A DNA stretch of 64,000 bases. Origin: a phage. Shown here piece after piece: positions 1 through 14,984 of the stretch. Made by a program: the position numbers and the translations under genes. Below the pieces are notes generated by a model that ran no database searches, had not been told where the DNA came from, and saw only the letters and a list, made by a program, of their open reading frames with translations. Each line of letters begins with the position of its first letter. Positions within the stretch are counted from its first letter, which is position 1. Location of the stretch: sequence record PZ445436.1; one strand, given 5' to 3'.

Positions 1-1836
<1,836 letters not shown>

Positions 1837-1864: not shown

Positions 1865-3844
1865 ATGACTTTATTATCTCCGGGCATTGAGCTCAAAGAA
1901 ACTACGGTTCAAAGCACCGTGGTTAATAACTCTACTGGTACAGCAGCTTTGGCCGGTAAATTCCAGTGGGGTCCTGCTTTTCAAATTAAACAGGTTACAA
2001 ATGAAGTAGATTTAGTTAATACTTTTGGTCAACCTACAGCTGAAACTGCTGACTATTTTATGTCTGCAATGAATTTCTTACAATACGGAAATGATTTGCG
2101 AGTTGTGCGTGCTGTCGATAGAGATACCGCTAAAAACTCATCTCCGATTGCCGGTAATATTGAATACACTATTTCTACCCCAGGTAGTAACTACGCGGTT
2201 GGAGATAAAATCACTGTTAAGTATGTTTCAGAAGATGTTGAAACAGAAGGTAAAATTACTGAAGTAGATGCTGATGGAAAAATTAAGAAAATTAATATTC
2301 CTACCGCAAAAATTATCGCTAAAGCGAAAGAAGTAGGCGAATATCCAGCATTAGGTTCTAACTGGACTGCGGAAATTTCTTCGTCTTCCTCTGGTTTAGC
2401 TGCAGTAATAACTCTTGGAAAAATTATTACTGATTCTGGTATTTTATTAGCTGAAATTGAAAATGCCGAAGCTGCTATGACAGCTGTTGACTTTCAAGCA
2501 AATCTCGAAAAATATGGAATTCCAGGAGTAGTAGCTCTTTATCCAGGCGAGTTGGGCGATAAAATCGAAATTGAAATCGTATCTAAAGCTGACTACGCAA
2601 AAGGTGCTTCTGCATTACTCCCAATTTATCCAGGTGGCGGAACACGCGCATCTACTGCCAAAGCAGTGTTTGGATATGGACCACAAACTGATTCACAATA
2701 CGCTATTATAGTTCGTCGCAATGATGCTATTGTTCAAAGCGTTGTTCTTTCAACGAAGCGTGGTGAAAAAGATATTTACGATAGTAACATCTATATTGAT
2801 GACTTTTTCGCAAAAGGTGGTTCAGAATATATTTTCGCAACTGCACAAAACTGGCCAGAAGGCTTCTCTGGAATTTTAACTCTGTCTGGTGGTTTATCAT
2901 CAAATGCTGAAGTAACAGCAGGAGATTTGATGGAAGCTTGGGACTTCTTTGCTGACCGTGAATCTGTTGACGTTCAGTTGTTTATTGCGGGTTCTTGTGC
3001 CGGTGAATCTTTAGAAACAGCATCTACTGTCCAAAAACACGTCGTTTCAATTGGGGATGCTCGCCAAGATTGCTTAGTATTGTGCTCTCCTCCGCGTGAA
3101 ACTGTAGTTGGAATTCCTGTAACTCGTGCTGTTGATAACTTAGTCAATTGGAGAACTGCAGCAGGTTCATACACTGATAATAACTTTAATATCAGTTCAA
3201 CCTACGCAGCAATTGATGGTAACTACAAGTATCAGTACGACAAATATAATGATGTGAATCGTTGGGTTCCATTAGCAGCTGATATTGCTGGTTTATGCGC
3301 AAGAACTGATAACGTTTCTCAGACTTGGATGTCTCCAGCTGGTTATAATCGTGGCCAGATTCTTAACGTTATTAAACTTGCTATTGAAACTCGTCAGGCG
3401 CAGCGCGACCGTTTATACCAAGAAGCTATCAACCCAGTAACTGGTACAGGTGGTGATGGTTACGTATTGTATGGTGATAAAACAGCTACTTCTGTTCCTT
3501 CTCCATTTGATCGTATTAACGTTCGTCGTCTGTTTAATATGTTAAAAACGAATATCGGACGTAGTTCAAAATATCGTTTGTTCGAATTAAACAACGCGTT
3601 TACTCGTTCATCGTTCCGCACAGAAACTTCCCAGTACTTACAGGGAATTAAAGCTCTCGGTGGAATTTATGAATATCGTGTAGTTTGCGATACAACAAAT
3701 AACACTCCGTCAGTAATTGATAGAAATGAGTTTGTTGCAACATTCTACATTCAACCGGCTAGAAGCATTAACTACATTACCTTAAACTTCGTAGCAACTG
3801 CTACTGGTGCAGATTTCGATGAGTTAACTGGTCTTGCAGGTTAA
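1865..3844 (+). CDS. 18: Contractile tail sheath protein, T4 gp18-like
   Basis: 659-aa ORF, same length as T4 gp18; preceded by TATAAATA late promoter and AGAGGA SD. Confidence 0.95.
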   Translation: MTLLSPGIELKETTVQSTVVNNSTGTAALAGKFQWGPAFQIKQVTNEVDLVNTFGQPTAETADYFMSAMNFLQYGNDLRVVRAVDRDTAKNSSPIAGNIEYTISTPGSNYAVGDKITVKYVSEDVETEGKITEVDADGKIKKINIPTAKIIAKAKEVGEYPALGSNWTAEISSSSSGLAAVITLGKIITDSGILLAEIENAEAAMTAVDFQANLEKYGIPGVVALYPGELGDKIEIEIVSKADYAKGASALLPIYPGGGTRASTAKAVFGYGPQTDSQYAIIVRRNDAIVQSVVLSTKRGEKDIYDSNIYIDDFFAKGGSEYIFATAQNWPEGFSGILTLSGGLSSNAEVTAGDLMEAWDFFADRESVDVQLFIAGSCAGESLETASTVQKHVVSIGDARQDCLVLCSPPRETVVGIPVTRAVDNLVNWRTAAGSYTDNNFNISSTYAAIDGNYKYQYDKYNDVNRWVPLAADIAGLCARTDNVSQTWMSPAGYNRGQILNVIKLAIETRQAQRDRLYQEAINPVTGTGGDGYVLYGDKTATSVPSPFDRINVRRLFNMLKTNIGRSSKYRLFELNNAFTRSSFRTETSQYLQGIKALGGIYEYRVVCDTTNNTPSVIDRNEFVATFYIQPARSINYITLNFVATATGADFDELTGLAG

Positions 3845-3860
3845 TACGGTGCATTCTAAA

Positions 3861-3878
3861 GGCCTGTTTCGGCAGGCC
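3861..3878 (+). other. GC-rich hairpin after gene 18
   Basis: GGCCTG-TTTCGG-CAGGCC; no clear U-tract. Confidence 0.45.
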
Positions 3879-3879
3879 A

Positions 3880-3887
3880 TATAAATA
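3880..3887 (+). promoter_or_regulatory. Late promoter (TATAAATA), distal, upstream of gene 19
   Basis: Exact TATAAATA immediately after the GGCCTG/CAGGCC hairpin. Confidence 0.5.
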
Positions 3888-3938
3888 CACTATATCCTTA
3901 ATTCTTTAATTCTATATGCCCTAGGTTAAACATAGGGA

Positions 3939-3946
3939 TATAAATA
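3939..3946 (+). promoter_or_regulatory. Late promoter (TATAAATA) for gene 19
   Basis: Exact TATAAATA 15 nt upstream of gene 19 ATG. Confidence 0.6.
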
Positions 3947-3960
3947 CTACAGAGGCTAAT

Positions 3961-4452
3961 ATGTTTGTAGATGATGTAACACGAGCGTTTGAATCTGGTG
4001 ATTTTGCTCGACCTAACTTATTCCAAGTAGAAATTTCTTATCTTGGACAAAATTTTACGTTTCAATGTAAAGCCACTGCTTTACCAGCTGGTATTGTAGA
4101 AAAAATTCCAGTCGGATTTATGAACCGTAAAATTAACGTAGCAGGCGATCGTACATTCGATGACTGGACTGTTACAGTAATGAACGATGAGGCACATGAT
4201 GCTCGCCAGAAGTTTGTTGATTGGCAAAGCATTGCTGCTGGGCAAGGGAACGAAATTACTGGTGGAAAACCAGCAGAGTATAAAAAGAGCGCTGTTGTTC
4301 GCCAATATGCTCGTGACGCTAAAACTGTAACAAAAGAAGTCGAAATTAAAGGCTTGTGGCCTACCAACGTGGGTGAACTTCAATTAGATTGGGATTCAAA
4401 CAATGAAATCCAAACCTTTGAAGTAACTCTCGCTCTCGATTATTGGGAATAA
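3961..4452 (+). CDS. 19: Tail tube protein, T4 gp19-like
   Basis: 163-aa ORF, length and sequence as T4 gp19; two TATAAATA motifs upstream. Confidence 0.95.
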   Translation: MFVDDVTRAFESGDFARPNLFQVEISYLGQNFTFQCKATALPAGIVEKIPVGFMNRKINVAGDRTFDDWTVTVMNDEAHDARQKFVDWQSIAAGQGNEITGGKPAEYKKSAVVRQYARDAKTVTKEVEIKGLWPTNVGELQLDWDSNNEIQTFEVTLALDYWE

Positions 4453-12736: not shown

Positions 12737-12805
12737 GTTATCGAGTTGGTGCCATTATATACATCATTTTCTGATTGTGTTTTGTGTGCTTTCAAAATGA
12801 AGAAA

Positions 12806-12819
12806 GGGGCCGAAGCCCC
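12806..12819 (-). terminator. Terminator-like hairpin after hoc
   Basis: GGGGC-CGAA-GCCCC followed on minus strand by U-rich tract. Confidence 0.55.
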
Positions 12820-12825
12820 TTACGA

Positions 12826-14244
12826 TTATGGATAGGTATAGATGATACCAGTTTCTAAAGCAGTTTTGTGAATGATGTATCCATTACGCGATTCTTGGAC
12901 ATCAACTTCTGGATAGTCTTTCATCATCTTCTGAAGCGTATAACGATGCAGGTAGTATTTACTATCTGGATCTTCAGTTTTCCAATCTTTACCTTCTTCA
13001 GTCATTTTTTGGATTTCATCCATAACCCACCAACCGCACCAGATGTAAGCTGAAGTACGATGTGGAAGAGGATGAACATAAGGTAATTCACCTTCTGGTT
13101 CTGGAGCAACTTTATCAGTCACTTGAACTTGACCTTCTGCTGTAATAGTTTTACTATCATAATCAGTTGCCGTAACGATAGCAGTAACTTCAATAGTTTG
13201 ACTTCCAACAGATGACGTATCAACGGTATACACATTAGTTGATCCTTCTACAGGAGAAGAATCTTTCTTCCATGAATAAGCAATTTGTGCTTCTTCTGGT
13301 GCATCAGTGACATTAGCAGTAAATGTGGCCGAAGCATCTTGCTGAACATTAATAGAAGGAGGAGTCAATGTAACCTGTGGATTCATTGTCTTCTTATTAA
13401 CTGTTAATGATACTTCATTCGAAGTAACTTCCTTTTCATTGTAATTTTCAGCAGTTACTTGGGCTACGCATTTAATTTTTTTTACTCCACTTGTAGTTGG
13501 AGTATAGCTAAATGTAGAGTTAGTTTCTCCACCAACTTGTGAATCATCTACATACCACTGATACGTAGCAGACGCTCCAACTGGTTGAGAAGCTAAGGCA
13601 GCAGTAAATTGAACTGGGGTTCCAATTACTCCAGCTGAAGGACTATCGGGAGTTACTGCCAAAGTAGTTGTCTGTGTCTTTTTATTAACAGTCAGTGACA
13701 CTTCATTAGAAGTAACGCTTAGTGCGTCATAATCTGTTGCGGTTACTTGAGCCACACACTTGATTTTTTTAACTCCGCTTGTGGTAGGAGTGTAATTGAA
13801 TGTAGCGCTAGTTGCTTCGTCCACAGGAGAATCATCTACATGCCACTGATATGTAGCATTTGCGCCCGATGGCTGCGAAGCTAAAGTAGCGGTAAATTCA
13901 ACAGCTGTTCCGATTACTCCTTCCGGAGGACTATTAGGAGTTACAGCTAAGGTAGTCGTTTGTGTCTTATTTTGAACTGTGATAGTTGTACTAATTTCAG
14001 CTGTTTCTGGACTACTATCGGCAACTTGATTTGTTGCAACTACTTTAATAGTCTTTTGACCGGCAGGTCCTTTTAATACATAACTAAAAGTTGCTTCAGC
14101 CCCATCTTGTGGAACATCATCTACAGTCCAAGCATATGTAATAGGTCCATCTCCAGTTTGACCACTGGGTGTAGCAGTAAACTGCTGAGTCTGATCTATA
14201 ACTCCAGTAGGTGTTTTAGGAGTTATATCAACTGTAAAAGCCAT
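12826..14244 (-). CDS. hoc: Highly immunogenic outer capsid protein Hoc, with four Ig-like domains
   Basis: 472-aa ORF; N-terminus MAFTVDITPKTPTGVID and C-terminal capsid-binding region as in T4 Hoc; contains a tandemly duplicated 96-aa Ig-like unit. Confidence 0.9.
   Translation of the reverse strand: MAFTVDITPKTPTGVIDQTQQFTATPSGQTGDGPITYAWTVDDVPQDGAEATFSYVLKGPAGQKTIKVVATNQVADSSPETAEISTTITVQNKTQTTTLAVTPNSPPEGVIGTAVEFTATLASQPSGANATYQWHVDDSPVDEATSATFNYTPTTSGVKKIKCVAQVTATDYDALSVTSNEVSLTVNKKTQTTTLAVTPDSPSAGVIGTPVQFTAALASQPVGASATYQWYVDDSQVGGETNSTFSYTPTTSGVKKIKCVAQVTAENYNEKEVTSNEVSLTVNKKTMNPQVTLTPPSINVQQDASATFTANVTDAPEEAQIAYSWKKDSSPVEGSTNVYTVDTSSVGSQTIEVTAIVTATDYDSKTITAEGQVQVTDKVAPEPEGELPYVHPLPHRTSAYIWCGWWVMDEIQKMTEEGKDWKTEDPDSKYYLHRYTLQKMMKDYPEVDVQESRNGYIIHKTALETGIIYTYP
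13393..13968 (-). repeat. In-frame tandem duplication (2 x 288 bp) encoding two Ig-like domains of Hoc
   Basis: Units 13393-13680 and 13681-13968 both encode KTQTTTLAVTP...SNEVSLTVNK, roughly three quarters identical at protein level. Confidence 0.85.
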
Positions 14245-14253
14245 AAGTTATCC

Positions 14254-14934
14254 TTATTTTAATGTTACGAAAGAAGAATTGCGTGTTTCACGAATTAAAA
14301 CTGATCCGTCACGGTTAATGTAATAAATTAAGCTAAATAAAGTTTGGTGTGCTGACGCATGCTCAAAACTTGTTGGGTGAGATTTCCAATCCGGAGTTTC
14401 AGCAATCCATTGATAAATCCACCAAGGAACAGTGCAGAATCCTGGATTTTTTCCAATCAGTTGAAGATTCGGACTAAAGTTTTCCGGAAGAGTAAATACA
14501 GACGGCTTTTCAGATTCAATAATCTCAGCTACAGCCTGTTCAAATTTTTCTTCAACAAAAGGAGTATCTTCAATCAAAACATCGGTATTTTCAGGAATTT
14601 TATCCTTTTCTACTACTTCAATTTTAATGTCAGATTTAACTGGAGAATCAATTAGAAGTGCTGCTTCTGGATTGACTTCTTCATCGTCATATTTTAATCC
14701 CTCTGCGGCATCAGCAGCATCAATTAAGTCTTTAATAGATAACCCATCAGTCTCTGGCATAGGCTCACTAGCGAGCTTCTGGAGGGCTTCTTCAATATCA
14801 GCAACGATATTATCAAAAGATTTATTCTTTTTGACCTTTATACCAAACTGTTCAGCATATTCAGCTAATTTAGCTTTAGCTTCTTTGTTATCATCAAGAG
14901 CCTTCAGCTCTGCAATATAATCTTTATCTATCAT
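14254..14934 (-). CDS. inh: Inhibitor of prohead protease, T4 Inh (hoc.1)-like
   Basis: 226-aa ORF, length and position as T4 inh. Confidence 0.85.
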   Translation of the reverse strand: MIDKDYIAELKALDDNKEAKAKLAEYAEQFGIKVKKNKSFDNIVADIEEALQKLASEPMPETDGLSIKDLIDAADAAEGLKYDDEEVNPEAALLIDSPVKSDIKIEVVEKDKIPENTDVLIEDTPFVEEKFEQAVAEIIESEKPSVFTLPENFSPNLQLIGKNPGFCTVPWWIYQWIAETPDWKSHPTSFEHASAHQTLFSLIYYINRDGSVLIRETRNSSFVTLK

Positions 14935-14947
14935 AATATTTCCTCAG

Positions 14948-14955
14948 TATAAATA
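14948..14955 (+). promoter_or_regulatory. Late promoter (TATAAATA) for uvsW
   Basis: Exact TATAAATA 29 nt upstream of uvsW ATG. Confidence 0.6.
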
Positions 14956-14984
14956 TAGATATATTTATTACATGGTATTTAGAC

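Follow-up and report, generated by a model that had tools for sequence, protein, structure and literature searches.

Two tandem, diverged copies of Ig-like domain 2 in the hoc gene of a Tequatrovirus and their place in an allele series of T4-type phages

The stretch of phage DNA considered here (64,000 nucleotides of sequence record PZ445436.1, in the following referred to as the window) represents a Tequatrovirus genome that shares about 97.7% identity over 25 kb with phages such as teqdroes. Positions 12826-14244 on its minus strand harbor a coding sequence for 472 amino acids plus stop codon that is not interrupted by any internal stop. A preliminary description of the locus had assigned this ORF to hoc, and this assignment is well supported by the match to T4 Hoc (PDB 5vf3_Z, E = 1.6e-215), by matches to PHROG 1149 ("Hoc-like head decoration") as well as PHROG 21694, and by the gene order inh-hoc-24.3-24.2-rnlB, which is the same in the window, T4, teqdroes, Shigella phage A2 and RB69. 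The encoded protein is identical to GenBank entry QXV75869.1 from Escherichia phage AndreasVesalius and is one of 58 sequences that cluster at 90% identity. Deposited Hoc proteins bear inconsistent or wrong names, such as "capsid whiskers protein", "capsid and scaffold protein", "PKD domain protein" and "endonuclease [Shigella sonnei]".

The hoc gene is adjoined by inh (14254-14934), which is recognized by an inh PHROG match, and uvsW is found nearby on the strand opposite to hoc. In T4, the homing-endonuclease gene segE is located between inh and uvsW, whereas it is absent from the corresponding interval of the window (14935-14984). The hoc allele next to this segE-less site could be replaced through SegE-driven co-conversion in mixed infections with T4. 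A Shine-Dalgarno-like AAGGA (14251-14255, minus strand) overlaps the inh stop codon and precedes the hoc ATG by 6 nt. At the other end of the gene, a GC-rich hairpin resembling an intrinsic terminator (AAGGGGCTTCGGCCCCTT followed by a T-rich tail; 12794-12821, minus strand) begins 5 nt past the hoc stop codon. In the minus-strand sequence immediately preceding hoc and inh, no exact match to the T4 late-promoter motif TATAAATA is present. A late-promoter-like site with one mismatch, AATAAATA, comes closest and precedes the inh start by about 28 nt (14969-14962, minus strand). Hence, expression of hoc is assumed here from its conservation with T4. Across the whole window, TATAAATA occurs 20 times, compared with 9.3 expected occurrences.

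From its N-terminus, the predicted protein comprises an Ig-like domain 1 (aa 1-92; 13969-14244, minus strand) that aligns to residues 1-92 of T4 Hoc, followed by two consecutive copies of the domain-2 module, which is of the PKD type. These copies are termed unit A (aa 93-188; 13681-13968, minus strand) and unit B (aa 189-284; 13393-13680, minus strand). The fourth Ig module, which matches domain 3 of T4 Hoc, spans aa 285-380 (13105-13392, minus strand), and a capsid-binding domain at the C-terminus completes the protein (aa 381-472; 12826-13104 including the stop codon, minus strand). Together, A and B cover exactly the interval 13393-13968 for which a tandem Ig-like module had been proposed. 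In agreement with the two in-frame units of 288 bp and 96 aa with shared motifs that had been noticed there, they align without a single indel, with 214 of 288 nucleotides (74%) and 74 of 96 amino acids (77%) being identical. A repeat search likewise reported a direct repeat of 251 nt at a spacing of 288 within hoc. The 214 matching bases compare with a mean of 75 for shuffled sequences (sd 7.3, maximum 110, n = 10,000), corresponding to z = 19. Tandem Repeats Finder reported no array in hoc, probably because merely two copies with about 74% identity are present, and its silence was thus not counted against the repeat.

Alignment with T4 Hoc (376 aa; 5vf3_Z, NC_000866) further defines what has been added. 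The two proteins are collinear in two pieces, with window residues 1-106 corresponding to T4 residues 1-106 and window residues 189-472 to T4 residues 93-376. The protein of the window therefore equals T4 Hoc plus exactly 96 residues, i.e. one module, which accounts for the difference between 472 and approximately 376 aa pointed out earlier; the T4 reference itself has 376 rather than 472 residues. The C-terminal domain is nearly unchanged relative to T4 (T4 residues 281-376), with a dN of 0.009 and two non-synonymous sites. Among the Pfam models, PKD (E = 6.9e-09) and PKD_4 scored above their cut-offs on the protein, while matches to Ig_3, Ig_2 and I-set remained below theirs.

The layout of four Ig-like modules plus a capsid-binding domain, as envisaged from the sequence beforehand, is consistent with Pfam, with the T4 alignment and also with structure prediction, which had been recommended as a check. 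An AlphaFold2 model built from a 53-sequence alignment folds the Ig-like part into four β-sandwich domains, with pLDDT values of about 88-96 across residues 1-380 (80-91 for the β-sandwich of domain 1). In this model, units A and B have the same DSSP assignment at every one of their 96 positions. Of the 22 amino acid differences between the two units, 14 map to loops. The top matches of the model in Foldseek searches against the PDB were structures in which four or five Ig or cadherin domains follow one another in tandem, and the best superpositions were obtained with extended, rod-like strings. The C-terminal domain is poorly modeled (pLDDT 40-65), and the pTM of 0.55 renders the inter-domain angles, and hence the length of the fiber, unreliable.

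The two units have been separate for a long time. A Nei-Gojobori comparison of A with B gave a dS of 1.39 and a dN of 0.148 (dN/dS about 0.1). For comparison, the dS between this phage and T4 amounts to 0.24 for domain 1, 0.43 for domain 3 and 0.19 for the C-terminal domain. The copies are thus much older than the split of this hoc from that of T4, in line with the earlier suggestion that the units have diverged and that the duplication is not recent. Judging from the sequences, both copies are under purifying selection.

How widespread the arrangement is was assessed with a query of 56 aa across the A-to-B boundary, for which a match in one piece requires two adjacent modules (tblastn, E <= 1e-12). 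This junction query matched 250 phage records, and in 245 of these the alignment covers at least 80% of the query. The matches fall on 280 places in total, so that some records must carry two junctions. These records also bear on the question of whether the repeat might be an assembly artifact or a very recent duplication. Tandem repeats can be assembled incorrectly, and some related members of the Hoc cluster are shortened (278, 281 and 184 aa) or broken up into two separate ORFs, for which frameshifts within the repeat may be responsible. Yet, the two copies in the window differ at 26% of their nucleotides and are separated by the high dS given above, the reading frame is intact, and the same architecture recurs in roughly 250 phage records, including one that was deposited specifically for the hoc gene of phage RB30. 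An artifact, already discounted in the preliminary description, or a very recent event can hence be regarded as practically out of the question.

For comparison with the junction matches, a C-terminal domain with at least 95% identity is present in 646 records. In addition, among 60 hoc matches sampled at even spacing, 18 span about 1419 bp and 33 about 1131 bp. Based on the ratio of junction to C-terminal records and on this sample, two or more domain-2 modules are encoded in roughly a third of the sequenced T4-type phages. A higher figure of 597 records, obtained by megablast with at least 80% query cover, was dropped as a count of the 472-aa allele, because a lone domain 2 yields alignments with both units, whose pieces are then merged into one place. 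Among the best 120 database homologues, Hoc has 376 aa in 77 cases, 472 aa in 29 and 568 aa in seven, and a few others are off these lengths by a few residues. The 568-aa form, exemplified by UGKSEcP1, possesses three domain-2 modules, and the Hoc of slur03 (NC_042129; 931-2925 in the extracted locus) reaches 664 aa with four of them. Such a survey of Hoc domain number across T4-like phages, which had been suggested along with the initial observation, thus yields an allele series within Tequatrovirus that proceeds in steps of 96 aa (376, 472, 568 and 664 aa) and reflects one to four copies of domain 2. A T4-type hoc with 92% identity is also present in the record of Staphylococcus phage SAJK-IND (MG010123, 32 kb), which suggests that this record is mislabeled or contaminated.

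The closest described counterpart of the allele is found in phage RB30, whose hoc record AY101183.1 (protein AAM52483.1) is among the junction matches and encodes 472 aa. Its annotation contains a repeat_region at 367..944 with the comment [quoted passage not shown], and the Ig-like domains are listed as well. RB30 Hoc aligns to the protein of the window with 92% identity and without gaps, and shares with it the four Ig-like modules, the C-terminal domain and the twofold 288-bp repeat. The two proteins differ by 39 substitutions, which are mostly located in variable loop patches of domain 1 and of units A and B. The four-Ig hoc allele as such is therefore already known, annotated in the RB30 record, and common. 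Taken together, the region is most likely, with a probability of around 90%, the central part of an intact hoc gene in which domain 2 is present in two tandem, diverged copies, A followed by B, and which constitutes an RB30-type Tequatrovirus allele.

Four Ig-like modules and the same C-terminal domain also characterize Hoc of the Mosigvirus RB69 (NP_861884, 471 aa; hoc at 1358-2773 in the extracted NC_004928 locus). Its extra module, 2b, however, shares just 39-41% identity with module 2a of the same protein and with units A and B, which rules out that the four-Ig Hoc of RB69 goes back to the same duplication. Units A and B, in turn, exhibit 52-53% identity to 2a and 39-40% to 2b. From these identities it follows that a fourth domain arose independently in the two genera, with a separate and older origin in RB69. 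One homologue of 567 aa has the appearance of a hybrid, in which a Tequatrovirus domain 1 and an A-type module are joined to RB69-like 2a, 2b and domain 3. Variation in the number of Ig-like domains has been described for more distant relatives, as Hoc homologues carry strings of one to ten of them (Fokine et al. 2023, PMC10385173). While the variation described there is between distant phages, in the present case it is the number of one particular module that varies among nearly identical genomes of a single genus.

Insights into the relationships between the module copies were gained by clustering 166 domain-2 modules from 120 proteins, i.e. Hoc of the window and 119 database homologues. The leading domain-2 module is of the A type in 29 of 30 two-module and in all eight three-module proteins, hence in 37 of 38 multi-module alleles; A-type modules also constitute the sole domain 2 in 21 proteins of 376 aa. 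B-type modules are second of two in 26 cases, second of three in eight, and the sole module in 55. A third type is mostly encountered as the last module of an array. Of the two units of the window, A groups among modules from the first position and B among those from the second. Another fifteen sole modules cluster separately and, upon reading of their sequences, combine an A-like middle part with a B-like tail. Moreover, short variable patches reappear in differing combinations and positions across the modules, for example at module positions 77-85, where AENYNEKEV, ATDYDALSV or ATDYDAKTV can be found.

The fact that either type can serve as the only domain 2 of a 376-aa Hoc raises the possibility that the array did not diverge in place at all, but was assembled in one step through an out-of-register crossover between single-module alleles that had already diverged into A and B types. 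Such an event would be compatible with a dS between A and B far above that of the neighboring hoc domains, and with the visibly mosaic character of the hoc region. A single old duplication with repeated later deletions would, however, leave the same pattern, and the strict order of the modules, with A nearly always leading, is rather suggestive of a single origin. A one-step assembly from diverged alleles is considered the less likely history, albeit with a fair chance of being correct.

The composition of T4 Hoc (NP_049793, 376 aa; hoc at 3188-4318 in the extracted NC_000866 locus) is informative in this regard. T4 resembles the window in the position of the gene, in domains 1 and 3 and in the nearly identical C-terminal domain, yet differs in its single domain-2 module. 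Over roughly nt 36-230, this module shows 92-100% nucleotide identity with unit B, whereas nt 216-270 are 92-94% identical with unit A and only 61% with B. This switch identifies domain 2 of T4 as a chimera with a B-type head and an A-type tail. Such a chimera could be taken to mean that Tequatrovirus ancestrally possessed a multi-module Hoc, from which the 376-aa form arose by deletion; in other words, T4 would have lost a module, rather than this phage having gained one. The cluster of fifteen sole modules with A-like middle and B-like tail indeed corresponds to the expected product of a deletion. For T4 itself, however, the polarity of the chimera is the reverse of what a simple deletion from an A-B array would give. 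In addition, three Ig domains are reported to be typical for Hoc homologues (PMC10385173), and the extra domain of RB69 is not orthologous, which makes the A/B split specific to Tequatrovirus. An ancestral multi-module form thus appears unlikely, albeit still worth serious consideration.

A further comparison was made with teqdroes, the closest genome, whose Hoc has 376 aa. Between the two phages, the genes on either side of hoc share 97-100% identity and the C-terminal domain reaches 99%, whereas the Ig-coding part (window positions 13050-14100) is only 84-94% identical and contains a 288-bp indel. Measured against this single comparison genome, this part of hoc forms a local island of divergence in a nearly identical backbone.

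The length series, the chimeras and the local mosaic fit a scenario of copy-number change and module shuffling by unequal recombination. Presumably, the number of copies shifts by unequal homologous recombination between module copies, which might take place during phage replication or in mixed infections. Beyond the RB30-type arrangement of this particular gene, the domain-2 modules of Tequatrovirus may hence form a recombination-driven cassette array with one to four copies, position-specific types and frequent chimeras, which is selected via adherence to mucus or other surfaces or via escape from antibodies. This broader proposal is put forward tentatively, with its chances falling somewhat short of even. 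A cassette array of this kind would resemble the repeat-number variation in bacterial adhesins. A literature search that covered older Hoc papers incompletely retrieved no paper on domain-2 copy-number variation within Tequatrovirus, and the population-level cassette behavior may be the sole part of the present observations that has not yet been written up.

Hoc of the T4 type is dispensable for growth and is displayed on the capsid as one copy at the center of each gp23 hexamer. Since the capsid anchor is unchanged, binding to the hexamer centers via the C-terminal domain would be expected for Hoc of the window as in T4. T4 Hoc forms an 18-nm fiber (PMC10385173). The extra Ig module would add roughly 4-4.5 nm to it, provided that the string of domains remains extended. 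Such a longer reach may, as proposed in the preliminary description, alter adhesion to mucus or surfaces and the geometry of phage display.

Two previously described sequence features of Hoc can be located in the extended protein. In phage PNJ-9, residues S183, L184 and T185 of domain 2 have been reported as contacts to the mucin MUC2 (PMC11853027). SLT is present in Hoc of the window at 183-185 and once more at 279-281. The second copy could at most be read as a doubling of a putative mucin-binding motif, given that PNJ-9 is a different phage with a Hoc that lacks domain 3. Furthermore, D246 of T4 Hoc, the site of a mucus-adaptive mutation (PMC9271167), has its equivalent in D342 of the window protein.

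In light of these comparisons, the 376-aa Hoc of T4 is just one among several natural alleles. Work on Hoc-based phage display, vaccine scaffolds and mucus adherence thus relies on the shortest common form of the protein. The natural alleles with four, five and six Ig-like modules, all with the same capsid anchor, represent ready variants to probe the effects of fiber length and module number. Properties that could be addressed with such variants include adhesion, immunogenicity and display geometry.
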